In this document: positions 646 through 44,006 of the stretch, one piece after another
Layout of the letters: each line of letters opens with the position of its first letter
Numbering within the stretch: position 1 is the stretch's first letter
Source: Patescibacteria group bacterium
Lineage (GTDB): Bacteria > Patescibacteriota > Minisyncoccia > Phycocordibacterales > Phycocordibacteraceae
DNA: 64,000 bases
Assembly: GCA_013815345.1 (NCBI GenBank)
Contig: JACDGK010000001.1
Coordinates: 102,434-166,433, forward strand
Direction of reading: 5' to 3'
Notes under the pieces: model-generated
Told to the model about the DNA's origin: nothing
Seen by the model: the letters and a program-made list of their open reading frames with translations, nothing else
Database searches by the model: none
Made by a program: the position numbers and the translations under genes

Positions 646-2031
646 CTAGTCCGTTCTCCACTCCTCCGAGAAGTTTTTCCACCGTCTCCTGCGAGTACCG
701 GTATGAGGAATCAACGCTTCGACTCCTTCCGCTACTAACCGCCGTCCGCTCCCTTTCGTTTGACGGTATCGCTCCCGCGATCCCGCATTCTCTCGGAGAG
801 CGGCTTCGGATGCCATGCCGCGGTATTCCTTCATTCGAGCTCCCGCAACGGTAACTTCATCTCCGGGAGCTTCTTGAGCTCCTGCCAGCAAGCGACCAAG
901 AATGACGCTTTCTGCACCCAAACCAAGAGCGATTACGATGTCACCAGGATTCACGATGCCGCCATCGGCGATCACCGGAATATCTGTTCCTCGGAGAGTC
1001 TTAACGCAGTCATATACCGCAGACGCCTGGGGGCAACCAATCCCGGTAACGACACGAGTAGTGCAGATAGAACCACCTCCTTGTCCAACGATTACAGCGT
1101 CGGCGCCCGCCTCAGCGAGACGTTTTGCGGCGGTAGCTCGAGAAACGTTCCCTGCGACGATATCGATGTCAGAATAGAGTTCCTTGAGTTGTCTGATGGT
1201 GTTGTGCACATTCGCACTGTCACCATGAGCCGTATCAATAACGAAGGCATCACAGCCTTTTTCGGCCAACAATACTGCACGCACTAACGCTCCTTCACCA
1301 ACTCCGACAGCAGCAGCGACCCGAAGATGGCCTCGACTATCGATGTTATGCATGGATTCGTTGGATTTTCCCCTTTGAAGGTCGGCGAAAACATAGAGTC
1401 CGGCAATTCCTCCGTCATCATCGACAAGCGGAAGAATTTTTCTCTTTTCGCGACGCGTAATTACATACGCCTCATCAATAGACGTGCCTTTCGGCGCGGT
1501 GATGAGGTTCGCAAGAGGAGTCATGGCCTCTTCCACAAGCGTTTCGCGGTCGGGCTGGAAATCAAAATCGTTTTGCGTGAGCAATCCGACGAGCTTCCCC
1601 TCTTTAAGCACGGGGAAGCTATGAAACGACAACTGTTCCGCTTCGCGTCTAGAGAGAATGTGGGCGAGCGTTTCGCTTGCATTAGCGGTAGTAGGATGCG
1701 GAATCAGACCATTCAGATGCAGCTTTACCCGCTGCACTTTAGCAGCTTGTGCTTCCGGCGTCATGTTCTTGTGAATGACACCGATACCACCGTTGCTCGC
1801 GAGCGCGATTGCCATTGAGGACTCGGTAACGGTGTCCATAGCGGCACTAGCGAGCGGTATAAGAAGCTCAATTCTACGCGAGAAGCGAGTTCGCAAATTC
1901 ACGTCGCTCGGCATGACATTCGATAGATCCGTGTGGAAACGAAGATCAGCGTAGGTCAACTTGAGACCTTGCGTATCCATTTTGGCAAAGAACAGGTCCA
2001 TGCCGGAATTCGGCGACTTTATGTGGGTCAT
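646..2031 (-). CDS. guaB: IMP dehydrogenase
   Basis: 461 aa. It has the IMPDH catalytic loop GIGxGSICTTR, a CBS-domain pair in the middle, and a GGIG...GLGAESVILG C-terminus. Confidence 0.95.
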   Translation of the reverse strand: MTHIKSPNSGMDLFFAKMDTQGLKLTYADLRFHTDLSNVMPSDVNLRTRFSRRIELLIPLASAAMDTVTESSMAIALASNGGIGVIHKNMTPEAQAAKVQRVKLHLNGLIPHPTTANASETLAHILSRREAEQLSFHSFPVLKEGKLVGLLTQNDFDFQPDRETLVEEAMTPLANLITAPKGTSIDEAYVITRREKRKILPLVDDDGGIAGLYVFADLQRGKSNESMHNIDSRGHLRVAAAVGVGEGALVRAVLLAEKGCDAFVIDTAHGDSANVHNTIRQLKELYSDIDIVAGNVSRATAAKRLAEAGADAVIVGQGGGSICTTRVVTGIGCPQASAVYDCVKTLRGTDIPVIADGGIVNPGDIVIALGLGAESVILGRLLAGAQEAPGDEVTVAGARMKEYRGMASEAALRENAGSRERYRQTKGSGRRLVAEGVEALIPHTGTRRRRWKNFSEEWRTD

Positions 2032-6425: not shown

Positions 6426-7970
6426 CTATCTTGATCGCGGAATTATAGTCATGAGGAGTTCCTTTAAAGAACCGAAGTTAACTGGTTTGACGAAATGATA
6501 ATCAAATCCTGCGCCTTGCGAACGACGTTTGTCAGATTCCTGACCCCAGCCGGTAGTCGCAATGAGTATGATATGTTCTCCCCATGACTGTCGCCGAATC
6601 ATTTGTGCTAACTCAAGTCCGTTTATCTTTGGCATTCCTAAATCAAGAAGGATCACGTCAGGTTTAAAACTCTCGGCTTGCCGATACGCCTCAAAACCAT
6701 CGTATCCGATCTTCACCGCACATCCTTGGGCGCCGAGGAGCATTTTGAGGGAATCAGTAGCGTCTTTGTTATCATCCACGATCAATACGCGCAAATCAGG
6801 GGAAAGGGACTTCTTTTCTATCTCGGGCGTATCTCCCTCTGTTTCCTCGGCCGAGTCTCGTATTGGAATCTGTATGGTGAATGTTGTTCCCTTTCCTTCT
6901 TCAGACTCCACAGCAATGGTGCCGTCATGCAGCTCGACGAGCGTCTTTGCGAGCGTCAAACCAATGCCGAGTCCGCTTTTTGTGTTTTCGGTACCTGTCG
7001 GCACTTGCATAAACATTGTAAAGATTTGTGGCAGCATTTCAGGAGATATTCCTGGTCCATCATCTCTAACCGTGATAATTACTTGGTTCTTTCTGCGCTC
7101 TCCCTCGAGCCATATATGACCGCCGCCAGGAGTATATTTTGCGGCATTATTTAAGAGATTTGAAATTATCTGTGCAAGACGGATTCGATCGCCGTTGAGG
7201 TACAGCGTTCGCTGCGGCAGTGTCGCGGTAAAAGTATGTCCAGCAGAATCGAGAACCGGCTGACTTGTTTCGATAGCCATCTTAAGCACCTCGTTTAGAT
7301 TTACTCGTTCATTCCGAAGTTCGAGCCTATTGCTGCTGATACGTGCTACATCGAGAAGGTCGTCGATCAGTCGAGTCATCTGTCCTATCTGGCGATTCAT
7401 CACGGTGAGAGCCCATTCTTCTTCGGAAGTCTGTGCCGTATTTAAGTTAAGAATATCAATGGCATTACGGAGAGGGGCAAGCGGATTGCGCAATTCATGA
7501 GCAAGCACCGCAAGAAATTCATCTTTGTTTTTCGCTTCATCTTTAAGGATTTCCTCATTGTGAATTCTCTCTGAGATATCACGCGCAACTTTTGAGGCGC
7601 CCACCACAATACCTCTTTCGTTGCGTACCGGAGAAATACTAATCGAAAGGAAAACGGGCGTCCCATCTTTGTGGCGTCGCACTGTTTCAAAATGTTCAAT
7701 ATGTTCTGCTTTGTTTAATCGCTGCATGATTAGAAGCTCTTCCTCAATCCTTTCAGGCGGGATGATGAGTGCAATATGTTGTCCAATGGCTTCATCGGCA
7801 CTATAACCAAATATTCGTTCTGCACTTTTATTCCAGGTGCGAATAACGCCATCAAGCGTCTTGCTGATGATCGCGTCTTCAGAGGATTCTACGATAGCTG
7901 CGTGGAGATTCTTGAGTTGTTTGTCGCCGGCGAAAGCATCCTGAGCTCCTGGCCCAGTGTTGGTTTCCAT
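6426..7970 (-). CDS. hybrid sensor histidine kinase (PAS, HisKA, HATPase, C-terminal receiver)
   Basis: N-terminal PAS. H-box LAHELRNPLAPL. G-boxes DDGPGI and GLGIGL. C-terminal receiver LRVLIVDDNKD...DVILLDLGMP...KP. Confidence 0.9.
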   Translation of the reverse strand: METNTGPGAQDAFAGDKQLKNLHAAIVESSEDAIISKTLDGVIRTWNKSAERIFGYSADEAIGQHIALIIPPERIEEELLIMQRLNKAEHIEHFETVRRHKDGTPVFLSISISPVRNERGIVVGASKVARDISERIHNEEILKDEAKNKDEFLAVLAHELRNPLAPLRNAIDILNLNTAQTSEEEWALTVMNRQIGQMTRLIDDLLDVARISSNRLELRNERVNLNEVLKMAIETSQPVLDSAGHTFTATLPQRTLYLNGDRIRLAQIISNLLNNAAKYTPGGGHIWLEGERRKNQVIITVRDDGPGISPEMLPQIFTMFMQVPTGTENTKSGLGIGLTLAKTLVELHDGTIAVESEEGKGTTFTIQIPIRDSAEETEGDTPEIEKKSLSPDLRVLIVDDNKDATDSLKMLLGAQGCAVKIGYDGFEAYRQAESFKPDVILLDLGMPKINGLELAQMIRRQSWGEHIILIATTGWGQESDKRRSQGAGFDYHFVKPVNFGSLKELLMTIIPRSR

Positions 7971-9309: not shown

Positions 9310-10320
9310 TTACACAAGTGGGAGCGTAATAACTACTCGTGTTCCTTTCTCTTTTTCACTTTGTACCGTAATGGTGCCGTTATGCTGCTCTACTATCGTC
9401 TTTACGATAGCAAGTCCAAGTCCTGTTCCCTGCTGGGAAGTCTTTATACCTTTGTAAAACGGGGTAAATATATGGGGCATATCTCTAGGATCAATACCCT
9501 TTCCCGTATCGACAATCGTTATTTTTCCGAATGAATCATTGTGAAGTAGATTGATCGTGACTACCTCTCCCGTTTCAGTATGTTCAAGACTATTTTGAAT
9601 AATATTCACCAACATCCGCGTAATCGCGTCTTCATTTCCCTGCACTACTCCAGCCATTAATTTCTCAACCGCAAGGGTTACTCCTTTTTCTGCAGCAAAT
9701 GGCTGCATTTTATCGAGAACTTTTCTAATGACGTTCTCGAGCGCGAAAGGTTCCGCTACTTTTTCGCTCGCTTGCTCAGACCGAGCCAGGGCAAGTAAGT
9801 CTTCGACCATTGCGGTCATTCCTTTCACTTCTTCTAAATTGGAAACGAGCGTGGTACGCATCTGACCTGAAGACGGTTGAACATTTCGAAGAAGTACTTC
9901 AATATCATTTCTTATGATAGTAAGCGGCGTTCGTAGCTCGTGGGATGCCTGTGCTGCAAATGTTCGCTGTGCTTCATGGGATTCTTCTACCGGACGTAAT
10001 GTTTTCCCGGCCAGCAGGTAGCTCACAATGGCTGCAATGAGGATTATGGTGAGGTCAGACGCCACGAGCGTATGCTGCAAAGAATCCGAAGCGCTTTCAA
10101 CGAAATGCTGCCGTGAGATATTTCCTGCAAAATCTTCCTCACTTGCATCAGCAAAGTTTCCAATAATAGTGTGGTACAGGAAAAGACTGAAGCCGCAGAC
10201 GATGATGGCAATGATAAGCACATAGAGCGCAGTCAGTTTAAGACGCGCTTTAAAAAAGAGATTACGGTGAGAGCCGGTAGCCGATTCCCCTAACTGTCTC
10301 GATAGTAATGCTTTCATCAT
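9310..10320 (-). CDS. sensor histidine kinase (two TM helices, HisKA, HATPase)
   Basis: H-box ASHELRTPLTII. N, G1 and G2 boxes (DTGKGI, GTGLGLAIV). The annotated start overlaps the upstream regulator gene by 59 nt; an internal GTG start at the YVLI position is possible. Confidence 0.9.
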   Translation of the reverse strand: MMKALLSRQLGESATGSHRNLFFKARLKLTALYVLIIAIIVCGFSLFLYHTIIGNFADASEEDFAGNISRQHFVESASDSLQHTLVASDLTIILIAAIVSYLLAGKTLRPVEESHEAQRTFAAQASHELRTPLTIIRNDIEVLLRNVQPSSGQMRTTLVSNLEEVKGMTAMVEDLLALARSEQASEKVAEPFALENVIRKVLDKMQPFAAEKGVTLAVEKLMAGVVQGNEDAITRMLVNIIQNSLEHTETGEVVTINLLHNDSFGKITIVDTGKGIDPRDMPHIFTPFYKGIKTSQQGTGLGLAIVKTIVEQHNGTITVQSEKEKGTRVVITLPLV

Positions 10321-10936
10321 GTTTCTGTAGCTTATTCCTTAAATTATTAATATGCACGTCCATAACGCGGCTTAGTGGATTGAAAGAGAAATCCCACAAG
10401 TGATCGATAATCTTTTGTCGTCCGAGCACTTCTCCTGGATGCTGCATAAAATACTCGAGAATTCTGAATTCTTTGAGAGTGAGTGGAATCTTTTTGCCGG
10501 CGAGATACACTTCTTGCGAAGCGGGCTTCAACGTGAGCTCACCGACGATGAGCTCAGGTGGCAATGTTTCGCGCGATCGCCGAGAGAGTGCACGAACGCG
10601 TGAAAGCAATTCCTCAAAAGAAAATGGTTTTACGAGATAATCGTCGGCACCGCTATCGAGACCTTGCACTTTGTCACTAACCGTATCTTTTGCTGTAAGC
10701 ATGATGATCGGCGTCATGACGGCACGCTCGCGAAGCGAGCGTGCTATCGAAATGCCATCTTTTCCGGGAAGCGCAATATCGAGGATCAGGAGGTCGTAAT
10801 CCATTTTTCCTAGCAAGGCGCGTTTTTCTCCCTCAATTCCATCAGGAACCGTATCTGCGGCATATCCCTCTTGTTCAAAGCCCCGCTTTAGAGATTCCGC
10901 GAGTTTTACATTGTCTTCTATGATCAGCAGGCGCAT
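10262..10936 (-). CDS. OmpR-family response regulator
   Basis: Receiver domain MRLLIIEDN...DLLILDIALPG...TAKD plus a winged-helix C-terminal domain (RVMDVHINNLRNKL). Confidence 0.9.
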   Translation of the reverse strand: MRLLIIEDNVKLAESLKRGFEQEGYAADTVPDGIEGEKRALLGKMDYDLLILDIALPGKDGISIARSLRERAVMTPIIMLTAKDTVSDKVQGLDSGADDYLVKPFSFEELLSRVRALSRRSRETLPPELIVGELTLKPASQEVYLAGKKIPLTLKEFRILEYFMQHPGEVLGRQKIIDHLWDFSFNPLSRVMDVHINNLRNKLQKHDESITIETVRGIGYRLSP

Positions 10937-27897: not shown

Positions 27898-28965
27898 TTA
27901 TAGGTACCGCTCGAAGGTCTTCGGATCGAGGGCCCGTTCGTAGGCGTGTTCGATGGTCACCTCCCCTTTTCGGACCAGCTCCGCAAGCGAGCGATCCATG
28001 TCGATCATACCGTCCTGAGAACTCGTCTGAATGACGGTCGTGATCTCATGCGTGCGACCCTCGCGGATGAGGTTAGCGACGGCGGCGTTGTTAATGAGCA
28101 ACTCGTATGCAGGAATGAGCCCTCCTGCGATACGCGGCACGAGTCGCTGCGAGAAAATACCCGCCAAAGAACCCGCGAGCTGCACGCGCACCTGATCCTG
28201 CTGGCTCGACGGGAAAATGTCGATGATACGATCGATCGTCTGTGCCGCATTGTTCGTGTGAAGCGTTGAAAGCACGAGGTGACCGGTTTCAGCGGCTGTC
28301 ACCGCGGAAGAAACGGTTTCCTGATCGCGCATTTCGCCCACCATGATCACATTTACGTCTTCACGAAAGGCGGACTCGAGCGCACTATGGAAATCAGTCG
28401 CATCAATATGTACCTCACGCTGGTGAATGAGTGATTTCTTTGCATCAAAGATGTACTCGACCGGGTCTTCAATGGTCACGATATGCTCAGCGCGTGTTTC
28501 ATTGATACGGTCGATCATCGCGGCAAGCGTTGTCGACTTCCCTTGCCCTACCGGACCCACGACGAGAAAGAAGCCTTGCTGACGCTGAGTGAAAACTTCG
28601 AGGATAGGCGGAAGGTTGAGATTTGCAAACGTGTGAACTTCGTGGGGAATGAGACGCATGGCAAGTGCGATAGAGCCTTGTACGGTAAAGGCGTTGATAC
28701 GAAAGCGTGACTCTGACGTGTGTGCGTATGCAAAGTCGACGGACTGGTTATCAACGAATTTCTGCCAACGTGGCGCGGGCAGAATGCTTTTAAGAATAGC
28801 TTCTGTTTCGGGAGCCGTGAGGACTGGTTGCTGCAAGAGCGGCACCAAGGAGCCTGAGACACGGATGATAGGAGGGGAACCTACCGAGAGATGGAGATCA
28901 GACCCACCTTCTTTCACAACGATGTCGAAAAGTGCACCGATACGGGTAGTGGAAGTGTTGCTCAT
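27898..28965 (-). CDS. pilT: twitching-motility (retraction) ATPase
   Basis: Walker A GPVGQGKST. Asp and His boxes. AIRE-like C-terminus typical of PilT. Confidence 0.9.
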   Translation of the reverse strand: MSNTSTTRIGALFDIVVKEGGSDLHLSVGSPPIIRVSGSLVPLLQQPVLTAPETEAILKSILPAPRWQKFVDNQSVDFAYAHTSESRFRINAFTVQGSIALAMRLIPHEVHTFANLNLPPILEVFTQRQQGFFLVVGPVGQGKSTTLAAMIDRINETRAEHIVTIEDPVEYIFDAKKSLIHQREVHIDATDFHSALESAFREDVNVIMVGEMRDQETVSSAVTAAETGHLVLSTLHTNNAAQTIDRIIDIFPSSQQDQVRVQLAGSLAGIFSQRLVPRIAGGLIPAYELLINNAAVANLIREGRTHEITTVIQTSSQDGMIDMDRSLAELVRKGEVTIEHAYERALDPKTFERYL

Positions 28966-29345
28966 GCTTGTTTTTCAATAATCTTAATAGTTTCTGCGTA
29001 TACTTCGGAAGGAATTGCTGACGCCTTTATGATATAGCCCGACGCACCAAATGATTTCGCCTTTTCCACATCTGTTTCCAACCCTTGATTTGAAAGTACG
29101 ACCGTCTTCATGCCTGGCGCAAGTTTTTCCTTTTGCACCGTCTCCAGCACTTGAAATCCATCTACCTCCGGCATAACGATATCGAGAAGCATGGCATCGG
29201 GAGGTGGTTTGGTGCGGAGCGCTTCAAGCACGAACTTTCCACCGGGAAATACAGTAACTTCATGTCCTGCTGCTCGGAATTTGACCGCGTACATATCGAG
29301 GAGAAATCGATCATCATCGGTAAGATAAATGCGGTACGTGGCCAT
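28962..29345 (-). CDS. single-domain CheY-like response regulator inside the pilus operon
   Basis: Receiver motifs DDD, MLLDIVMP, VVLSN, K. Confidence 0.85.
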   Translation of the reverse strand: MATYRIYLTDDDRFLLDMYAVKFRAAGHEVTVFPGGKFVLEALRTKPPPDAMLLDIVMPEVDGFQVLETVQKEKLAPGMKTVVLSNQGLETDVEKAKSFGASGYIIKASAIPSEVYAETIKIIEKQA

Positions 29346-34605: not shown

Positions 34606-34692
34606 GGAGACGTGGCTGAGTGGTCGAAAGTACCTCACTGCTAACGAGGCAGGGGTTAACGCCCCTCGAGGGTTCGAATCCCTCCGTCTCCG
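34606..34692 (+). tRNA. tRNA-Ser (anticodon GCU)
   Basis: GGAGACG acceptor, D-arm, anticodon loop CUGCUAA, a long variable arm CAGGGGTTAACGCCCCTC, T-arm GAGGG-TTCGAAT-CCCTC, acceptor CGTCTCC, discriminator G. Confidence 0.9.
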
Positions 34693-36209
34693 CAGATAGA
34701 AACTTCGAGTTCGGACAGAGCCGTGCCGCAAAGCGGCGTGGCAGAATGGGCGGACAGAAAATCCCGCCGCGTAGCGGCGAATTGGCTCGGCGTGGGGAAT
34801 CCGAAATGCGGGGATTTGTCACGAACCGAAGGGTTCGTTCCGATTTTTTGCACGAATGATTTGATTTGGTACAAATCATCCGATTGAGACAAAAAATCGG
34901 CTTGTTTCATATCCAAAATCCATTCCCGCAGGGGTTCGACCCGATTCTTTCTCCCGCGTTCAAAATCTTTCTTTTTCTCTTGCAAAGCGGCGAGAGAGCG
35001 CATGAGCACGTCCTTGCGCTTCAAGTACATCTCTTTCGGTATATCGCCATCTAGGTACGCAGATACCAGCTTTTCCATGCGCTCCTCGCTCGCTTTGATA
35101 TTGTCGGAAAGATTTTGAACCTCGCTTTGCGACACCTCAACTTCCTCGCGCTCCCATTCTTTCACTTTCGCCAACATCCAATCCGTATAGCGATCGCAAA
35201 GCGAGATTGTTTGAAGCCGTGCCTTTATTTTGTCGGCAAGGTCGGCCTCGCGGACATACGGTTGCGAGCAGCGGCCGCGTTTCTTGGAACACCGATAGTA
35301 GCGATACTTCGTACCCCAGCGATTGACCGCCCACTGCGCGGAAATCATGCCGCCGCACTCGCCACAGCGGAATAGCCCGACAAGCGGAAAATCATGCTTC
35401 ACCTTGCGCGTGCGCGGCCGCTCCTTGCCCGCCACGACCTTCTGCACGGCTTCAAACAATGCGGGAGTTAGAATCGGCTCAAAGTTTCCATCAAACCATT
35501 CCTGACCGTGCTTCACGAATCCGATATACACGCGATGCGTCAAAAGCCGTTTGATGGAAACTTTGGCAAGTGGCGTTCCGTTTGAAGTCATCACATTCAA
35601 GTCCGCCAAAAATTGCGACAACGAAACGAGAGTATGCGACCCTTTGGCGTATTCTTCGTACGCGAGGCGCACGATACGCGCGTTCGTCGGATGCGGTTCA
35701 ATATTGCGAATACGCGGGTTATTTTGATAGCCAAAGGGTGCGCGATTGAGCCACTCGCCCCGACGCAATTTTTGGCGGACGCCGCGCTTGATATTTTCGG
35801 ACAGATTGTCGCTGTAATATTTAGATTGCCCGAACGCCACTTGCAACATAAATAGTCCCTGCGGGGTCGGTTCAAACCAAAATGTCGGGAAGCGCAAAGA
35901 CACCACCTTACGCGTGTCTACGGCGTATATGATGCGCCCGCCGTCAATGCTGTTGCGAGCCAATCTATCGGGATGCCACGCCAATATGCCCACGCCGTCC
36001 ATTGATTCAATGCGGGCCATCATTTCGCCGTACACCTCGCGCCCCGGTGTCTTTGCGCTTTTCGACTCTTGAAATTCCTCAAGAATTTCAAGATTTTCTT
36101 TACGCGCGATCTCCCGCAACTCAAACAGCTGCGCCTCGATGGACATGACTTGCCGGTCATCGTCCTCAGTGCTCTTACGCGCGTATAGAAAATATTTTGG
36201 CTTGTTCAT
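34656..36209 (-). CDS. large serine recombinase (resolvase/invertase catalytic domain, recombinase domain, zinc ribbon)
   Basis: N-terminal catalytic block YARKSTEDD...SIEAQ (Ser nucleophile), recombinase domain, Cys cluster CGECGG...C. The probable start is the Met at 36209, since the track's extra 33 N-terminal codons lie in the right IR. The frame runs through the left IR and stops only inside the antisense of the tRNA. Confidence 0.85.
   Translation of the reverse strand: MNKPKYFLYARKSTEDDDRQVMSIEAQLFELREIARKENLEILEEFQESKSAKTPGREVYGEMMARIESMDGVGILAWHPDRLARNSIDGGRIIYAVDTRKVVSLRFPTFWFEPTPQGLFMLQVAFGQSKYYSDNLSENIKRGVRQKLRRGEWLNRAPFGYQNNPRIRNIEPHPTNARIVRLAYEEYAKGSHTLVSLSQFLADLNVMTSNGTPLAKVSIKRLLTHRVYIGFVKHGQEWFDGNFEPILTPALFEAVQKVVAGKERPRTRKVKHDFPLVGLFRCGECGGMISAQWAVNRWGTKYRYYRCSKKRGRCSQPYVREADLADKIKARLQTISLCDRYTDWMLAKVKEWEREEVEVSQSEVQNLSDNIKASEERMEKLVSAYLDGDIPKEMYLKRKDVLMRSLAALQEKKKDFERGRKNRVEPLREWILDMKQADFLSQSDDLYQIKSFVQKIGTNPSVRDKSPHFGFPTPSQFAATRRDFLSAHSATPLCGTALSELEVSICGDGGIRTLEGR
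34689..34819. repeat. left 131-bp terminal inverted repeat (begins with CCGCA of the tRNA-Ser 3' end)
   Basis: Direct alignment with the reverse complement of 36234-36364. Confidence 0.85.
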
Positions 36210-36233: not shown

Positions 36234-36364
36234 GACAAATCCCCGCATTTCGGATTCCCCACGCCGAGCCAATTCGCCGCTTCGCGGCGGCATTTCCTGC
36301 CCGCCCATTCTGCCACGCCGCTTTGCGGCGCGGCTCTGTCCGAACTCGAAGTTTCTATCTGCGG
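36234..36364. repeat. right 131-bp terminal inverted repeat
   Basis: Reverse complement of 34689-34819. It produces mirrored spurious ORFs (36139..36375+ and 34478..34879-). Confidence 0.85.
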
Positions 36365-36587
36365 TGACATATTAGCCTTTGCTCGAACTCACTTCGCACG
36401 CGCCACGTGCGTGGTGGCTTGAGATTGAAGCGTACGCTCCGATCGCGTGGCGACTCTCTGAATCTCGCCACGCGCGGAGTACCGCGCGTCCGCCCTCTCT
36501 TTTGCCGTTTCCCCATTCTTATTTTTTTGCGGGGGGGGATTGAATTTGGAATGGACGGCAGAAACGAGAGATTGGGCTTAAATCTAA

Positions 36588-36635: not shown

Positions 36636-36857
36636 ATGAGCAAGTCCGTTTTCTCGAAAGACTATAAAGAAATCATAGAACGCTTGAAAACGGCGCGTAT
36701 TGAGGCTGGACTTGCACAGCAGGCGGTTGCGGACAAACTCGGTAAACCCCAATCTTTTATCTCAAAAATTGAATCCGGCGAAAGACGGCTTGATGTGGCG
36801 GAGATCAAAAAGTTTTCCGTAATCTACAAAAAAGATGTTTCCTTTTTCATAAAGTGA
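36636..36857 (+). CDS. XRE-family HTH regulator (restriction-modification controller-protein-like)
   Basis: 73 aa. HTH QQAVADKLGKPQSFISKIESGER. It directly precedes the nuclease gene. Confidence 0.75.
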   Translation: MSKSVFSKDYKEIIERLKTARIEAGLAQQAVADKLGKPQSFISKIESGERRLDVAEIKKFSVIYKKDVSFFIK

Positions 36858-36858
36858 T

Positions 36859-37473
36859 ATGGCTAAGAAGGTAACCAATCATCCAAAAACAAGCAAAGGA
36901 GTAGTTTGGCAAAAACTTCTCGACGCTCTTTATGCTGATATCGGCAATGTCGTTTCGAACCAGAAACTTATAAAAGTTTCTGGACAACACAACTATGCTC
37001 GTCGTGTAAGAGAATTACGAGCAGAGGGTTGGGATATTGTTTATAGCGCAAGCCCAACTGGATATATTTTGCGTTCAACTAATAAAACCGCCAAAAACGC
37101 TGATGTTTATATCAATTTTAAATTAAGACAAAAGATTTTAGAAAGGGATCAATATATTTGTCAGCTCTGTGGACATAGGGCGAATGAAAAATACGCTGAT
37201 GGTGAATCAGTAAAGCTTGAAGTTGACCACATCCTTCCTCTCAAACAAGGCGGGAAAACTGTTGAGGAAAACCTTTGGACTTTATGTACTCGTTGTAATG
37301 CTGGGAAGAAATCACTTTTGGATTATCCCGAAACGGTTAAAAATAGGATAATCTCGGTTAATCTTCCAGATGATATAAGAGGAAAACTAAGCGAGTTGTC
37401 TCTCAAGAGGGGTGAGACCATCAACAGCCTCATTTTGGACGCTATACGCAGAGGGATTAAGAAATTGAAATAA
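36859..37473 (+). CDS. HNH-family restriction endonuclease
   Basis: HNH motif CQLCGH...EVDHILP...GG...N...LCTRCN. Starts 2 nt after the C-protein stop. Confidence 0.8.
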   Translation: MAKKVTNHPKTSKGVVWQKLLDALYADIGNVVSNQKLIKVSGQHNYARRVRELRAEGWDIVYSASPTGYILRSTNKTAKNADVYINFKLRQKILERDQYICQLCGHRANEKYADGESVKLEVDHILPLKQGGKTVEENLWTLCTRCNAGKKSLLDYPETVKNRIISVNLPDDIRGKLSELSLKRGETINSLILDAIRRGIKKLK

Positions 37474-38487
37474 TTCTTTTCCTACAGCAAGGGCCAAACG
37501 GCACGGCACGGCGTTACCGATTTGTTTGGCGACTTGGACATTTGAACCCACGAAAACATAATCATCGGGAAATGTTTGTAATCGTGCCGCCTCTCGAATT
37601 GTTATAGGTCTGTGCGCTTCAGGATGCAGATAACAACCTTTCTCCGGTTTAAAAAATTCGGTTCTGATAGTGAGAGATGGTTTATCCCATTCCAATCTAC
37701 CGAAGACATCCGTGGAGCCAGTCTTTTTCCGCTTCCAACAGTCAGGTGTCAATTCCAAAGGCAAATCAAATCTATTGCCTCCAGCCGGAATTGATTTGTA
37801 TCTCTTTAAAGACGTGGGGGTAGGGTTTCTTCCAATGTGCCAATCTTTTCCGGTTGGTTCTAATGGCAAGTCTGCGATCGCATCTTTGACGGTAGCCCAA
37901 GTCTGTAGATGGGCGTTTAAAAGATTAAAATTATCAGCAGAAGTATGTGTTGGTTGAGGGTGATTAGGTATTCCAATCCTACTGCCAAAGATGATGGCCC
38001 GCTTTCGTTTTTGTGGAACTCCGTATTCGACGGCATGTAAGACTTTTTCTCTTACTTCGTATCCTAAATCCTCCGCCATTTTCTTTATGCTGGGGAATTC
38101 ATCACTTGTCAGGAGTTGGGGGACATTTTCCATCAAAAACACCTTCGGTTTAAAGAAAGCAACGAAGCGCATATATTCTCGCCACATTTGATTACGAGGG
38201 TCGTCCTTTTTTTGTTTGCCCAACCGACTGAAACCCTGACATGGCGGCCCCCCTACAATTAAATCAACTGTCCTAGTTCCAATTCGTTTTGAAAACTCTT
38301 CTAAATCCACGGATGTAATATCTCCTTCATGCACAAGCATGTCTTTATGGTTTGCGCGTAAGGTTTCGCAGCTCCAATGATCCCAATCAGTTGCAGCAAG
38401 GGGTTTAAATCCGGCTTGCTGAATTCCGATAGACAAGCCGCCAGCTCCAGCAAACAAGTCAATGAAAGTTGGTTTTTTGTTGCTCAT
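37387..38487 (-). CDS. DNA (cytosine-5)-methyltransferase
   Basis: Motif I FIDLFAGAGG, motif IV GGPPCQGFS, motif VI ENV, motif VIII QKRKRAII. Convergent with the nuclease gene, with an 87-nt 3' overlap. Confidence 0.9.
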   Translation of the reverse strand: MSNKKPTFIDLFAGAGGLSIGIQQAGFKPLAATDWDHWSCETLRANHKDMLVHEGDITSVDLEEFSKRIGTRTVDLIVGGPPCQGFSRLGKQKKDDPRNQMWREYMRFVAFFKPKVFLMENVPQLLTSDEFPSIKKMAEDLGYEVREKVLHAVEYGVPQKRKRAIIFGSRIGIPNHPQPTHTSADNFNLLNAHLQTWATVKDAIADLPLEPTGKDWHIGRNPTPTSLKRYKSIPAGGNRFDLPLELTPDCWKRKKTGSTDVFGRLEWDKPSLTIRTEFFKPEKGCYLHPEAHRPITIREAARLQTFPDDYVFVGSNVQVAKQIGNAVPCRLALAVGKELFQFLNPSAYSVQNEAVDGLTPLERQLA

Positions 38488-38514: not shown

Positions 38515-38805
38515 TTAAAATTCACTCCTAAGTACACCGACGACCTTTCCTTGTATTTCCACATTAGTTTCATAAAAAGGCTTCATTGTATGGTTTGCCG
38601 GAACAAGTTTGATCCGATTTTTCTCTCTATAAATCTTTTTTAGCGTAACTTCATTTCTGTCCGGCATATACGCGACTGCTTTTTCTCCATCATCAACAGT
38701 CGGCTGTTCTCGCACTATCACAATATCGCCATCCGATATTCCTTCTTCAATCATACTTCTTCCAGATACCTTGAGTGCGTAGTGATTAAACCCTCGCGAA
38801 AGCAT
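38515..38805 (-). CDS. S24-family peptidase domain protein (LexA C-terminal/UmuD'-like) lacking a DNA-binding domain
   Basis: Ser-Lys dyad context KVSGRSM...GDIVIV...K. The in-frame sequence upstream (..PAGGPIEAIRDPEPIEV..) looks like a LexA/UmuD cleavage-site region but has no start codon. Confidence 0.7.
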   Translation of the reverse strand: MLSRGFNHYALKVSGRSMIEEGISDGDIVIVREQPTVDDGEKAVAYMPDRNEVTLKKIYREKNRIKLVPANHTMKPFYETNVEIQGKVVGVLRSEF

Positions 38806-39030
38806 ACTACGTGGAACTTCTATCGGTTCGGGGTCTCTGATTGCCTCAATCGGCCCTCCTGCGGGCGAGAAGACAGCCGAGGCAGAGCGAATCCTTTCCC
38901 CCAGACAGATTGTTTCGCTCTGCCGAGTCCGAATTATTAGTTTTAATCATCAGGATTTTGTCCGAAATACATTCGAACTTTGTCCAATACACACCGCCAA
39001 GAAAACTTAGTATCGGCTGACCCTAGTGCC

Positions 39031-39273
39031 TTACTCTACCTGTACATCTTTGAGCAAATCTATACGCTCAATAATGAGCATCTCCATCTTCTTTATAGAA
39101 TTACAAATGATTCTAGCGAGCTCCTTGTCTTTATCCATTTTTTGCTTCGAAAGAGACACTTCCAAAATCTGCGCGTAGCAATATATCACGCTCAGGTCAT
39201 TCCGAAGATCATGAGCGAGACGAGGGAGTCCATCAGCTTCATTCTTACCTAAATTGGATTGATCATCTTCCAT
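39031..39273 (-). CDS. HisKA-only protein (dimerisation/phosphoacceptor domain with no ATPase)
   Basis: H-box LAHDLRNDLSVI followed by a helical bundle. 80 aa with no HATPase_c. It is in frame with the upstream receiver gene across a single TAG. Confidence 0.6.
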   Translation of the reverse strand: MEDDQSNLGKNEADGLPRLAHDLRNDLSVIYCYAQILEVSLSKQKMDKDKELARIICNSIKKMEMLIIERIDLLKDVQVE

Positions 39274-39282
39274 ATATCCTAT

Positions 39283-39639
39283 CTATAAAGCGTACTCTTT
39301 CACCCTTGCTAATAAGTCATTCATTTCAAAAGGTTTTGTCATGAATGCATCAGCCCCTGCCGCTCGCGCGGAATCTTCAACATCACGGCTAGCAGAAATC
39401 ATTACGATCGGAATATGCTTTGTTGATTTATTTGCTTTAAGTTTTTTACATATTTTCTTGCCATCTTGACCTGACATCCAAATATCTAGAAGCAGAAGAT
39501 CCGGTAATTGCTCTATCATTTCCTTAACCGTTACACCTTCAGCCGTGGTCTGTACCTCATACCCTTCAAGCTCTAGGAGCATTTTTGTGGCATCCAGAAT
39601 GGCTAGGTCATCATCGGCAAGTAGTATCTTTTTAGCCAT
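39283..39639 (-). CDS. single-domain response regulator (receiver only)
   Basis: DDD, LLLLDIWMSG, MIS, K motifs. 118 aa. Confidence 0.85.
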   Translation of the reverse strand: MAKKILLADDDLAILDATKMLLELEGYEVQTTAEGVTVKEMIEQLPDLLLLDIWMSGQDGKKICKKLKANKSTKHIPIVMISASRDVEDSARAAGADAFMTKPFEMNDLLARVKEYAL

Positions 39640-39643
39640 AGGT

Positions 39644-41719
39644 TTATGCGTGTATCGCTTTCTTTATCGGGATACTAAAAGAAAAAGTCGAACCTTCTCC
39701 TTTGACGCTTTCGACCCAGATCTTACCCACTTCCCGCTTTACGATCTCACTTGAAATGTATAGACCAAGTCCGAGACCCGGGAAAGTCTCGCTTGTAGGC
39801 CCATCGACTCGGAAAAATTGCTCAAAGACCTGATCGATATTCTCTTTGGCGATGCCTAATCCGAAATCCTGAACGGAAAGAGTCGTCACTTTGCCCTTAG
39901 AGAAGGTTGAAACAATAATTTTCTTACCATTTGGGGAGTACTTTATTGCGTTTGTAATAAAATTCGTCAGAACTTGTCCCAGCCTTTCTCGGTCGCCATA
40001 TACTTTTTTCATTGAAGTGAGGACCACGATTATTTTATGTTTTTCTGACAATCGTTGCATTTCTTCCACTCTTTCGTTAACGAGTTCGTTAAAATCGAAA
40101 TAGTCTTCATGAAATTGCAATTGGCCGGAATTAATTTTGGTTACATCTAATAGATCGGCGATCAAGTCATTTAATCTGTTTATTTGAGTATCCATTTTAC
40201 TAAGCATTTCTGCCGCTTTGACGTCTCCTTTACTTTGAAAAATCTTCTCGAGGACTTGCCCATATGTCTTAATGCTCGTAACAGGAGTCTTGAGTTCATG
40301 CGATACAATACCTAGAAAACTGTCTTTCTGTTGCTCTAGTTCTTTTTGTTTCGTGATATCGCTTGCCGCACCAAACCACTCGATGATCTTTCCTTTCTTA
40401 TCAAGGATGGGTATAGCACGTGAAAATATCCATCCATACGTACCATCTACTTGCTTAATCTTGTATTCCAATTGGAAAAAGCTTTTTGTACGTATAGACT
40501 TTTTAATAGCCTCCTTGACCTGCAATTTATCGTCCGGATGTGTATATTTTTCTAACCAATTAGTAATGGGCTCCTCCGTATCGATAAGAAAATTTTTACC
40601 ACGAAGTTCCTGCATCTCTTTCCAATCAGGACTCATCCGATATACGACCTCCGACGTTGCATTAACAAGGGCACGAAAACGCTCTTCACTCTTTCTTACT
40701 TTCTCATCAGATTCTTTGCGAGCTGTAATATCACTGTAATTTATGACAATGGCTTTTACGTCCGGATCCTCCAACAAATTGGACATTACCGACTCTACCC
40801 AAATAGCGTACCCACCTTTATGCATAATCTGATATTTGGTTCGTTCTACACTTCCTGGTTTTTTAAGCAATTTTTCGAAAAGTTTGGTAACTAATTTTCG
40901 TTCATTGGGTGGCACTAATTCGAAAGGATTAGACAATTTTTTAAACTCTTCAGGTGTATAACCCATAACCTTCTTTGTCGACTCACTGGCGTGCAGGACC
41001 TTTCCTTTTCTGTCCACCAGAGCAATAGCATCTGCGTTTTTTTCAGTCAATACTCTAAATCGTTTTTCAGAAGAAGTTATTTCTTCCATAAAAAGATTGT
41101 GGTACGTGAATGCTATTTTCGAAGATAATATGTCGCAATAGCTGCCGATGATCTGGCTAAATTCGAATAAGTCTTGGGTGGAAAGTCCTTTGAGCAAACC
41201 TGTTTCTTCTAGTTTCTTCCAAATTGCTTGCTTCAAAAAAATGGTTCCATCGACCGCTTCCTCTATGGTAAGGCCATCCTTGTTCGCATCTGTTGCGACT
41301 TCTATGCCAAGATCCTGGAAGATTTTAGTCCCTTTTTCGAAATCATCAAGATTATTCGCAATGGCTCTAATCATCTTGGTATGAATCTTCCTATACTTAG
41401 TGACATGTTCTTTAGGCAGAGAATCGCCACCGATAAGATGCGTATGCTGGGAAGTAGCCGATGTTTGTATGGCGATCTCATTCGCCTTAAGAAGTTGTTT
41501 TATCTTGGTAAATTTTTTTTGCTCCTCTTTAATGCTTGGATTTGAGGTCAATTTGGACAATGCTTCTCTGGTAAATCGCCAATCGCCACGAGAACCGATC
41601 TTTACTCCATTAAGCTGGTTGGTTTTTGCCCACTTGCGTATAGTCGCAGGATTCACACCCAAAAAAGCTGCTGAGCGCTGAACATTAAGTAGCTTTGGTT
41701 CTATTTTATTTATTGACAT
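39644..41719 (-). CDS. sensor histidine kinase with an N-terminal excisionase/MerR-like HTH and tandem PAS domains
   Basis: HTH AAFLGVNPATIRKWAK, PAS repeats, H-box SHELKTPVTSI, HATPase G-boxes DFGLGI and GLGLYI. 691 aa. Confidence 0.9.
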   Translation of the reverse strand: MSINKIEPKLLNVQRSAAFLGVNPATIRKWAKTNQLNGVKIGSRGDWRFTREALSKLTSNPSIKEEQKKFTKIKQLLKANEIAIQTSATSQHTHLIGGDSLPKEHVTKYRKIHTKMIRAIANNLDDFEKGTKIFQDLGIEVATDANKDGLTIEEAVDGTIFLKQAIWKKLEETGLLKGLSTQDLFEFSQIIGSYCDILSSKIAFTYHNLFMEEITSSEKRFRVLTEKNADAIALVDRKGKVLHASESTKKVMGYTPEEFKKLSNPFELVPPNERKLVTKLFEKLLKKPGSVERTKYQIMHKGGYAIWVESVMSNLLEDPDVKAIVINYSDITARKESDEKVRKSEERFRALVNATSEVVYRMSPDWKEMQELRGKNFLIDTEEPITNWLEKYTHPDDKLQVKEAIKKSIRTKSFFQLEYKIKQVDGTYGWIFSRAIPILDKKGKIIEWFGAASDITKQKELEQQKDSFLGIVSHELKTPVTSIKTYGQVLEKIFQSKGDVKAAEMLSKMDTQINRLNDLIADLLDVTKINSGQLQFHEDYFDFNELVNERVEEMQRLSEKHKIIVVLTSMKKVYGDRERLGQVLTNFITNAIKYSPNGKKIIVSTFSKGKVTTLSVQDFGLGIAKENIDQVFEQFFRVDGPTSETFPGLGLGLYISSEIVKREVGKIWVESVKGEGSTFSFSIPIKKAIHA

Positions 41720-42078
41720 TTTATTTAATGCATATTTGCACGTATCTATAAGAAACTATCACTAACCGAGTGATTATCTGATGAAGTTATCTGAAATTAG
41801 ATTGAGCTCTCCTCACACACTTAAGATGAACAAATAGAACCTTACCTCGTCGAATGAGAACCCCTTTTCAGGAATAACACCCTTATTTTGTGTCCCATTT
41901 ATTCCAATCGTAAAAATTTCCTATTCCGACCCGGGTGCACCGCAACATATGTTTAGAAGAATCGATCGCTGCTATTTTATAAACTCAAGGAACTTTGGGT
42001 CGGGCATTGGAAATTGTGTAGCAGACACTCATGCCAGAAAACGGTAGCTTGTACGGGAATTTTATAGTAATTTAGAAT

Positions 42079-42372
42079 CTATTTAAAATAACTGATCAAC
42101 ATATCCAACCAGTCTTGTTTTGTGACCCGACCATGGGAGGTCTGGTACAGTATTCCCTGGTCATCTGGATTGTCTGATCCTGAACGGTACTGCCAGTACG
42201 TAAAACTTACGCCCTTTTGGTTAAAGAGACTTAATACGTCCCGCACATATTGCATCGCACCTGGGACCGCCGTATAAATGCCGATCTGGTTAGCGTACAC
42301 TGGCACATTATGCGCAGTCCTGAAGCTTGTCGCGCATGAAATCAAGCCACTAAGCCACGTCTGATTCATCAA
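42079..42372 (-). pseudogene. possible C-terminal remnant of a glycoside-hydrolase-like gene
   Basis: 97-aa ORF with a weak resemblance to a GH5-type C-terminus (YWQY, GILY). It has no upstream partner in frame. Confidence 0.3.
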
Positions 42373-42787: not shown

Positions 42788-43315
42788 TTACCGCACTGTT
42801 GGAATTGGTCTTCCATCTGGCAAATGTCCGCGTACGTTTGGCTCGTCATACGGGCCTCCTTCCAAAATTGCTGTGGGTAAAGTGCCGGTTCGCACGCTGT
42901 GAGCAAAAATCGAGCCATCCTCATTCATCGTTCCTACGACAAATACTTGTTCACCAACCGAAAGCTGATCTGAGCTGATTGTCGTCGGGGTTGAAGACGC
43001 CGTCGCGAAATGTTGAATGGTCGTTGTCGCAGAAACGGTGACTACTTTTGTCGTATCGTCAGAGAACGTAAGGATAAATCCATTATCATTGAAGATTTCA
43101 ATCGATCCTCGTACATACCCGCTAGAATTTCCAATAGTATTTTCTTCCGAAAGATAATTTGTCGGTGCAGGAGACGTCAGAGCTTGTCCGAATCCGAGTC
43201 CTGTTGCTACCTGCGGGTTAGAAAATACATACAGTATCGCAGCCACAATGAGTAGCAGGAGAACAAGAATGCTGATAACTATCTGTGGTCTTTTCATGGT
43301 GCGAGCCACGAACAC
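42788..43315 (-). CDS. membrane-anchored hypothetical protein
   Basis: N-terminal TM helix and a Thr/Ser-rich extracellular part. Confidence 0.55.
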   Translation of the reverse strand: MFVARTMKRPQIVISILVLLLLIVAAILYVFSNPQVATGLGFGQALTSPAPTNYLSEENTIGNSSGYVRGSIEIFNDNGFILTFSDDTTKVVTVSATTTIQHFATASSTPTTISSDQLSVGEQVFVVGTMNEDGSIFAHSVRTGTLPTAILEGGPYDEPNVRGHLPDGRPIPTVR

Positions 43316-43334
43316 CCACCATTAGGAATAGTTA

Positions 43335-44006
43335 TTACGGAGTGGTAGTGCGCAGCGTTCGTACCATCATATTAACACTAGTCGCATTACTGATGTTACC
43401 TGAAGTATCCTTCACGCCCATCGCTACGATTTTCTGACCAACGGCTAGATCGTTTACGGTATCTGACTGACCGTTCTTTTTATAGATGGTTGCTCCATTT
43501 GTGGTAACCGTAACAGTCGTTGGGGTGCCTTTCTTTAGATGACGAGTAAGTGTAATGCTCGACCCATTGATGCTTGAGATAGTGCCCAGCGTAGCATTCG
43601 GAAGTTTCTGATGCGTTCTCGTGGCAGGAATACCATCGGCAATTCTTTTTGCTACTACCGAAGTCCCGGTTACCGCACCCTTTACTGCGACGGTATCATT
43701 TACGGCAATACCCGAGACGGCAAGCGGCGCTGCAGTCGTGCCGTATCCCTTTTGAATTTTCGCTTTTGAAGCGTCAACGGCATAGGTAGTGCCATCTTTC
43801 CCCGCAACCGTGAGAGAGGAGCCGTTCACCGCGGTAACGGTGCCGATAACACCGGCGCGTTTATAAAAACCTGCTTTCCTCATCTGATGACTTGGATGCT
43901 GAGTTATGGAGGGATTTGCTGTTGGGGTGTCAGCGAACGCTGGCATCGCGAGTAAAAACGAGACCGCGGCTGCACCGCCGGCGGCTAAGATTTGTTTTTT
44001 GTTCAT
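43335..44006 (-). CDS. secreted repeat protein (DUF5666-like)
   Basis: Signal peptide. Repeated unit GTVTAVNGSSLTV..DGTTY.V / GTISSINGSSITL. Confidence 0.55.
   Translation of the reverse strand: MNKKQILAAGGAAAVSFLLAMPAFADTPTANPSITQHPSHQMRKAGFYKRAGVIGTVTAVNGSSLTVAGKDGTTYAVDASKAKIQKGYGTTAAPLAVSGIAVNDTVAVKGAVTGTSVVAKRIADGIPATRTHQKLPNATLGTISSINGSSITLTRHLKKGTPTTVTVTTNGATIYKKNGQSDTVNDLAVGQKIVAMGVKDTSGNISNATSVNMMVRTLRTTTP

Follow-up and report, generated by a model that had tools for sequence, protein, structure and literature searches.

Does a short open reading frame (ORF) that encodes only the HisKA domain of a histidine kinase represent a gene in its own right, and what could its product do beside a receiver? 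This question is raised by a 64,000-nucleotide stretch of DNA from a Patescibacteria group bacterium (contig JACDGK010000001.1, positions 102,434 to 166,433; the whole stretch is called the window below), in which genes for a sensor histidine kinase, a stand-alone receiver and an 80-residue HisKA-only protein follow one another on the minus strand. HisKA-only ORFs are usually written off as kinase fragments. Our analysis confirmed all three genes as real and showed them to be a signalling operon conserved in Patescibacteria (candidate phyla radiation, CPR). We tentatively read the small protein as a dimer of the dimerization and histidine phosphotransfer (DHp) type that lacks the catalytic and ATP-binding (CA) domain and would take the phosphoryl group from the receiver, either for transfer in the manner of Spo0B and ChpT or for phosphatase action. 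A preliminary description of the locus, made from the DNA letters, had reported three co-directional genes with these domains, and the ORF coordinates and Pfam matches agree with it to the base; this includes the stand-alone receiver of 118 residues, the HTH-PAS-HisKA-HATPase order of the 691-residue kinase (HTH, helix-turn-helix) and the motif AHDLRND in a small protein without ATPase domain.

The small protein and its family

The 80-residue protein matched HisKA (PF00512) with 30.3 bits against a cut-off of 26.9. The motif AHDLRND occupies residues 20–26, with the codon of H21 at 39211–39213, and H21-D22-L-R24-N25 satisfies the motif H-E/D-x-x-T/N. No ATPase domain was detected in the protein by Pfam, and the ORF stops after helix 2; the HATPase_c domain of a complete class I transmitter is absent, and the DNA downstream encodes an S24 peptidase.

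Homologues of the same size were found by several searches. The small protein of locus L004 shows 46% identity in a match of 54 residues (E 2e-15), and homologues of 80–81 aa are encoded directly 3′ of the receiver in L004, L006 and L007. A profile search of a collection of 5.8 billion proteins returned 24 clusters, all of 60–97 aa, and an exhaustive search with phmmer among 1.84 billion representatives gave 43 matches at E ≤ 1e-3, of which 39 are stand-alone proteins of 63–97 aa. A metagenome scan added the loci L029–L033, with the order kinase, receiver, small gene. The relatives P0145, P0141 and P0169 matched HisKA with 29–31 bits. Among the members of the small family, the His is present in 60/60, the Asn at H+4 likewise in 60/60 and the Asp at H+1 in 59/60. 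Pro at H+5 occurs in none of the 56 members that match the H box, and the partner kinases all read SHELKTP.

The small protein thus has a family of its own, with about 60 stand-alone members that are 60–97 aa long. The 80-residue ORF is more than a chance ORF because homologues of the same size occur at the same position with an invariant H box. A chance ORF or pseudogene fragment, which the preliminary description had named as the outcome that would overturn it, is refuted by the conserved family and the predominance of stand-alone relatives. The ORF is labelled only 'hypothetical protein' by NCBI and NR. A look-up of the exact protein sequence in a contig index gave no match, and a plasmid search with the module returned only PAS-domain pieces in haloarchaeal plasmids. 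In the literature searched, we found no description of natural DHp-only proteins or of such a family, which would be a CA-less, separately encoded variant of the DHp domain.

AlphaFold2 (AF2) modelling with the family alignment gave a hairpin of two helices, H15–43 and H47–79, with a mean pLDDT of 83.7 and values above 90 over residues 21–70. This predicted hairpin would be one half of a DHp four-helix bundle. A sequence profile search of the PDB gave weak DHp matches to bacteriophytochrome kinases (E 3e-3). The phmmer search also returned a sensor-like protein of 513 aa (P0182) that has a hydrophobic N-terminal segment and ends just after HisKA (residues 449–509), without HATPase. Either its gene call is truncated, or this may be a CA-less DHp protein of natural origin, possibly bound to the membrane.

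The in-frame TAG between the receiver and the small gene

The TAG of the receiver and the ATG of the small gene stand in the same frame 9 nt apart (GCT TTA TAG ATA GGA TAT ATG GAA), as had been noted, and readthrough or a recent nonsense mutation had been suggested for this junction. The receiver and HisKA could accordingly be one gene broken by a nonsense mutation, a sequencing error or a read-through TAG, or the small ORF could be a pseudogene fragment of a kinase. Besides the common frame and the short spacer, a relative that encodes a REC-DHp protein of 193 aa (P0156; REC, receiver) and the existence of REC-HisKA-HATPase kinases with a similar H box speak for this explanation. However, the two genes are split in eight independent loci with four different spacings, and the frame offset is 0 in the window and L006 but 1 or 2 in L004, L007, L012, L025, L027, L029, L031, L032 and L033, so that 2 of 11 loci are in frame, about the number expected by chance. 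TAG is a normal stop codon in the window, where the 44 long frames end in TAA (16), TAG (14) or TGA (14). The small gene retains its own ATG, preceded in the window by AGGA as a possible ribosome-binding site, and no HATPase remnant lies downstream, where the S24 peptidase gene begins after 38 nt. The stand-alone state of most relatives argues in the same direction. Because few loci are in frame, TAG is common and the separate genes are conserved, readthrough or a recent nonsense mutation is unsupported, and we consider a broken gene or kinase fragment highly improbable. The TAG is an ordinary stop whose frame is a coincidence, and its annotation needs no recoding or pseudogene flag.

The gaps between the receiver and the small gene range from −17 to +9 nt, a spacing typical of translational coupling, and by this spacing the two genes are probably coupled neighbours.

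A fusion of REC and HisKA in homologous loci had been proposed as a check. One such fusion was found, P0156, and in several other loci the receiver is fused to the kinase instead. P0156 is a singleton cluster from a single contig of 1.9 kb, and its junction consists of A8 and A6 runs, in either of which one additional A restores a TAA 4 nt before the ATG. Because of this homopolymer junction, the short contig and the lack of further members, it cannot carry the claim of a recent lesion or readthrough. It may nevertheless be genuine and would then be a third Rosetta-stone arrangement. In L028, the sole locus with a REC-DHp fusion, the gene of an OmpR-type regulator of 231 aa (REC and Trans_reg_C; 977–1672, minus strand) runs towards the fusion gene, with an overlap of 32 nt at the 3′ end of the latter; no other output regulator was seen beside any member of the module.

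Linkage to the receiver and the kinase

In every context examined, the small gene stands directly 3′ of a receiver that belongs to an orthologous kinase. A receiver gene of its own precedes the small gene in eight loci (the window, L004, L006, L007, L029, L031, L032 and L033), and in four or five loci (L012, L025, L027 and the P0144 context) the small gene lies 3′ of a kinase-receiver hybrid of 569–702 aa with a C-terminal Response_reg domain. The spot after a hybrid kinase is the classical place of a histidine phosphotransfer (HPt) protein. These Rosetta-stone fusions, of the receiver to the kinase and perhaps once to the small protein, suggest that the three proteins act together.

The kinase and a receiver of 117–129 aa occur in all traced contigs with a kinase orthologue. 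The kinase orthologues are 56–74% identical over their full length, and the receiver orthologues, 54–67% identical, are encoded directly 3′ of the kinase in every locus. The receiver of the window matched the response-regulator profile (PF00072) and has the catalytic quintet (D9–D11, D52, S82, F99 and K102); D10/D11, D52, S82 and K102 are invariant in seven receiver orthologues, and position 99 is aromatic (F/Y).

Proposed role of the small protein

In the mechanism that we propose, the kinase would autophosphorylate H474 and then phosphorylate D52 of the receiver, which is the standard behaviour of such domains. The small protein would dimerise to a four-helix bundle and dock the phosphorylated receiver on helix 1, and the phosphoryl group would move to the invariant H21, as it moves from Spo0F to Spo0B and from the CckA receiver to ChpT. 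N25 takes the position (H+4) of the phosphatase residue of HisKA and is no less invariant, so that mere hydrolysis of the phosphorylated receiver by the same protein is a further possibility. Either way, phosphate would be drained or relayed from the receiver with no ATPase domain involved. No gene for the final acceptor lies nearby; an orphan regulator encoded in another part of the genome, or control of the HTH of the kinase itself, would be the candidates. The linkage to the receiver, the HPt-like position, the variable fusions and the invariant His argue for a role in docking and phosphotransfer, and we regard this account of the protein as a good possibility that falls somewhat short of probable.

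A dedicated phosphatase or sink for the receiver, in which the DHp dimer would hydrolyse the phosphorylated receiver via N25, no phosphate would go any further and the output would come from the receiver or the HTH of the kinase, is a serious rival, although as the whole explanation we think it rather unlikely. In HisKA kinases, Asn or Thr at H+4 is needed only for phosphatase activity, for which the His is not required, and the DHp domain of EnvZ or NtrB alone, with the motif H-E/D-x-x-T/N, suffices for this activity (PMC3510030). The small protein is a natural equivalent of these isolated domains in size and motif, except that those are laboratory fragments of full kinases whereas the small proteins are a separately encoded conserved family. 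The Asn found in every member agrees with a phosphatase. However, the His is just as invariant although phosphatase activity has no need of it (PMC3510030), and the Asp at H+1, which is nearly invariant, is tied to the chemistry of His phosphorylation. The place after hybrid kinases, where an HPt protein would be expected, also argues against a pure phosphatase. The protein may do both.

Comparison with known phosphotransferases

Phosphotransferases of the dimeric DHp type that are fed by receivers include Spo0B, ChpT (PMC3433190) and PhyT (PMC5898713). Spo0B is a dimeric helical-hairpin His protein without kinase activity, which takes phosphate from the single-domain receiver Spo0F, itself charged by a kinase, and whose four-helix bundle is made of two subunits (PMC3433190). 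The small protein differs in that it has 80 aa, two helices and no C-terminal domain, and no terminal regulator like Spo0A is linked to it. The preliminary description had assigned a Spo0B-type architecture. A role like that of Spo0B is reasonable for a conserved CA-less DHp protein encoded after a receiver; membership of the Spo0B family is a different matter and did not stand, as the score given below indicates.

ChpT of Caulobacter and PhyT of Sphingomonas are degenerate kinases that only shuttle phosphate (PMC3433190, PMC5898713). The hybrid kinase CckA feeds ChpT through its receiver (PMC3433190), an arrangement like that of the loci with fused receivers (L012, L025 and L027), and PhyT is fed by the single-domain receiver SdrG (PMC5898713). 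Both retain a degenerate CA or ATPase-like domain, and this second domain is absent in the small protein, which lacks CA altogether. PhyT, moreover, is membrane-anchored and of the HisKA_2 type, and ChpT has a Pro at H+5 (Pro38), where the small family never has one. The terminal regulators of ChpT and PhyT are known, whereas here none is linked. With respect to HPt proteins (PF01627), a Pfam search of the small protein at E ≤ 0.1 gave only HisKA and SPOB_a and no match to the Hpt profile.

Several results weigh against a phosphotransferase of this kind. The small protein scored 14.8 bits against SPOB_a, below the cut-off of 28.1, while its HisKA score lies above the cut-off, and neither sequence nor fold searches gave a link to Spo0B or ChpT in particular. 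A Foldseek search with the small-protein model returned only Rop-like hairpins and nothing significant, which is of no help because the bare hairpin fold is too simple for discrimination. A shared docking surface, with helix 1 closer to that of the cognate kinase, was tried and rejected (BLOSUM scores 35, 37 and 26), since the similarity of helix 1 to the cognate kinase is not above that to another kinase of the window. The receiver was likewise rejected as a shuttle receiver of the FATGUY type: it reads M-I-S-A-S-R-D at beta4 and the following loop and has nothing like FxSGY. FATGUY-type intermediary receivers include CckA-Rec, MrrA and SdrG, but ShkA-Rec lacks the motif and Spo0F is also counted as a shuttle receiver (PMC9981736), so the absence of the motif is not decisive. 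No terminal response regulator was found next to the module in the window or in the related loci examined. Finally, several close orthologous loci keep kinase and receiver but have no intact small gene: it is lost or disrupted in L003, L005, L011, L016 and L019, and in L001 and L002 a remnant of about 19 codons (MQNTQSDSHTHEMSEIHCFA) is left of it. Such repeated loss is more in keeping with an accessory modulator than with an obligatory relay, unless those genomes carry a copy at another place. The absence of a linked terminal regulator and the dispensability of the gene both suit the phosphatase described above, for which the small protein would be a tuning factor.

The small hairpin might instead modulate a kinase by forming a heterodimer with the DHp domain of the HTH-PAS kinase, or of the hybrid kinase at 6426–7970, and so block or re-tune autophosphorylation as RetS does with GacS; cross-talk between the DHp domains of kinases, with RetS acting on GacS, is known (PMC5992135). 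The RetS-GacS DHp complex (7n0e) appeared at rank 31 of the structural neighbours, and the family profile gave 16.9 bits against the DHp domain of the other hybrid kinase of the window and 3.8 against that of the cognate kinase. However, the linkage is to the receiver, directly downstream of which the small gene always lies, and not to a kinase DHp domain, and no sequence signal for pairing with the cognate DHp domain was obtained. Because an inhibitor has no need of invariant H, D and N residues and the catalytic H box would be superfluous, such a heterodimer is less likely, and we judge it improbable.

If the small protein takes the phosphoryl group from the receiver as we propose, one could go further and regard the HDLRN proteins of 60–97 aa as the smallest natural histidine phosphotransferases, CA-less DHp dimers that would belong with an HTH-globin-PAS kinase and its receiver to a self-contained CPR phosphorelay, in which the kinase's own HTH would be the transcriptional output in place of a classical response regulator. 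We consider this extended picture doubtful.

The sensor kinase

The kinase, a cytoplasmic sensor, has the order HTH_17, globin-like helical domain, PAS, PAS, HisKA and HATPase_c. HisKA and HATPase_c scored 54.5 and 84 bits in Pfam, and the phospho-acceptor H474 lies within SHELKTP. HTH_17 (PF12728) scored 29.9 bits in the full protein and 32.4 with the N-terminal fragment alone, above the cut-off of 27. In the AF2 model, the N-terminal winged HTH resembles those of BldC, Xis and RacA by Foldseek, so that it is modelled like the HTH of BldC/Xis-type proteins. The kinase had been called an unusual DNA-binding kinase. This label does not hold, because PF12728 is present in 46 of the 120 best relatives of the kinase, some of which JGI names 'PAS domain S-box-containing protein/excisionase family DNA binding protein'. 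HTH_17-PAS-HisKA-HATPase kinases are a large family in Patescibacteria metagenomes, common rather than rare. In the literature searched, we came upon no description of HTH_17 kinases in CPR or of globin-coupled kinases that carry an HTH.

Residues 57–215 of the kinase have no Pfam match, and the most conserved motifs of the kinase family sit there. AF2 modelling of residues 1–220 gave a pLDDT of 90, and the best PDB neighbours of the helical domain in Foldseek were the globins of globin-coupled sensors (BpeGReg, AfGcHK and DosC), phycobiliproteins and pXO1-118; these matches had a probability of 1.0, E about 0.03 and a TM score, normalised by target, of about 0.65. At the sequence level, no match of the helical domain was found in Pfam or the PDB. 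Residues 61–219 are therefore described as globin-like by predicted fold, with haem binding unproven. As modelled, with a helical domain like a sensor globin placed before its kinase core, the kinase would resemble globin-coupled histidine kinases such as AfGcHK. It differs from them in the absence of sequence similarity, in the two PAS domains between the helical domain and the kinase core, and in having no conserved His at the place of the haem ligand: the only His residues of the helical region that are invariant in the kinase family are H92 and H207, neither of which lies in the central (middle) helices.

Operon layout and genomic neighbourhood

The coordinates of the features are collected in Table 1. 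The ATG of the receiver lies 4 nt past the stop codon of the kinase. The GC content of the module is 0.398, compared with about 0.47–0.48 in the remaining window, which bears out the AT-richness noted earlier.

Table 1. Positions of the signalling module, its parts and the adjoining restriction-modification (R-M) cassette in the window
Feature	Position	Strand	Details
Controller-type HTH_3	36636-36857	plus	R-M cassette
HNH endonuclease	36859-37473	plus	R-M cassette
C5 cytosine methylase	37387-38487	minus	R-M cassette
Small DHp-only (HisKA-only) gene	39031..39273	minus	80 aa; HisKA 30.3 bits
9-nt spacer ATAGGATAT	39274..39282	minus	AGGA 39280-39277, 3 nt before ATG
Receiver TAG stop	39283..39285	minus	Same frame as next ATG, 39273-39271
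Stand-alone receiver gene	39283..39639	minus	118 aa; Response_reg 80.9 bits
Sensor histidine kinase gene	39644..41719	minus	691 aa; ORF call, Pfam
Kinase core	39662..40327	minus	HisKA aa 465-532, HATPase_c aa 575-686; Pfam
Two PAS domains	40367..41062	minus	About aa 220-336 and 345-451; Pfam PAS_9/PAS_4/PAS, PAS_3
All-helical domain, globin-like predicted fold	41063..41539	minus	Kinase aa 61-219; AF2 and Foldseek
Winged HTH, excisionase/MerR-like	41552..41692	minus	Kinase aa 10-56; Pfam and AF2 model
Kinase upstream region	41720..42078	minus	AT-rich, GC 0.365; presumed promoter

The region upstream of the kinase is presumed to hold the promoter and would also be a possible target of the kinase's own HTH. 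One promoter-like site at consensus level (n = 1) was found on the minus strand at 42087–42059, straddling the upper edge of this region, and the count of promoter-like sites around it showed no excess over shuffled sequences. Directly upstream of the promoter region, a 97-aa ORF without Pfam match (42079–42372, minus) may be a gene remnant, and two DUF5666 paralogues adjoin it at 42788–44006 (minus).

Beyond the 3′ end of the module lies the S24 gene (38515–38992, minus), which would encode 158 aa from a GTG start at 38992, with a LexA C-terminal or UmuD-like domain. It contains a +1 frameshift at a G5 run (38898–38902), so that a 96-aa ORF represents its 3′ part. The homologue in L003 has G4 and an open frame, and with one G removed the window gene gives a Peptidase_S24 match over profile positions 8–116; the frameshift is either a sequencing error or the mark of a pseudogene. 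The segment 38806–39030, 83% identical to L003, was considered as a conserved non-coding RNA and rejected, its translation being the 5′ part of the S24 gene; it gave nothing in Rfam at the gathering threshold or at E ≤ 1, and folding z-scores of −1.0 and −1.7.

Further along, the window has a tRNA-Ser gene (34606–34693) and then a large serine recombinase, the R-M genes, the frameshifted S24 gene and the signalling module. An inverted repeat of 135 nt (34686–34820 and 36234–36368, 96% complementary) brackets the recombinase, and its left arm begins within the last 8 nt of the tRNA gene. The probable true start of the recombinase is the ATG at 36209 (MNKPKYF). Recombinase and repeats are GC-rich (0.54), unlike their surroundings, and the unit could be an insertion sequence-like or invertible unit or an assembly artefact. 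A direct repeat of tRNA-Ser that would bound an island was sought, and only short matches at chance level were found. The genes of the HNH endonuclease and the C5 methylase converge with an overlap of 87 nt, which makes a compact R-M cassette at 36636–38487.

The module had been placed in the same acquired region as these R-M genes, a view that the related loci do not support. Orthologous modules lie among housekeeping genes and are 0–5 GC points below their own flanks, and neighbours are shared: the S24 peptidase (window, L003, L006 and L025), DUF5666 (window and L006) and photolyase (L003 and L006). Because of this setting, the lower GC content and the recurring neighbours, the module gives the impression of resident CPR gene content that has been shuffled, with an insertion apparent only for the recombinase and R-M part beside it; this is not proven.

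In the closest relative, L002 (kinase 74% identical), the segment 2490–2680, which is the same in L001 and L008, joins the remnant of the small gene to the first 12 codons of the S24 gene in inverted orientation, followed by sequence like that of window positions 36361–36413, just outside the right repeat arm of the recombinase. This rearrangement may have destroyed both the small DHp gene and the S24 gene, possibly via the same mobile unit.

Other two-component genes occur in the window on the minus strand. A hybrid kinase of 514 aa (6426–7970; PAS-HisKA-HATPase-REC), whose DHp domain reads LAHELRNPL, has no HPt gene alongside. At 9310–10936, a HisKA-HATPase kinase of the classical kind is encoded together with an OmpR-type regulator, and this regulator (10262–10936) is the nearest response regulator with an output domain, so that the earlier statement that none adjoins the module was correct. 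A lone receiver of 127 aa is encoded at 28962–29345.

Significance

In this locus, the HisKA-only ORF defines a conserved family with strict linkage to the receivers of a single kinase family, in bacteria whose genomes are very small. If the small protein shuttles or removes phosphate, the ATPase remnant of Spo0B, ChpT and PhyT would be dispensable for phosphotransfer of the DHp type, and tools for the census of two-component systems should then count DHp-only proteins. The module offers a compact and soluble system of three proteins for studies of the recognition between receivers and DHp domains, and one of the three, the kinase, brings along a DNA-binding domain of its own and possibly a sensor of the globin type.

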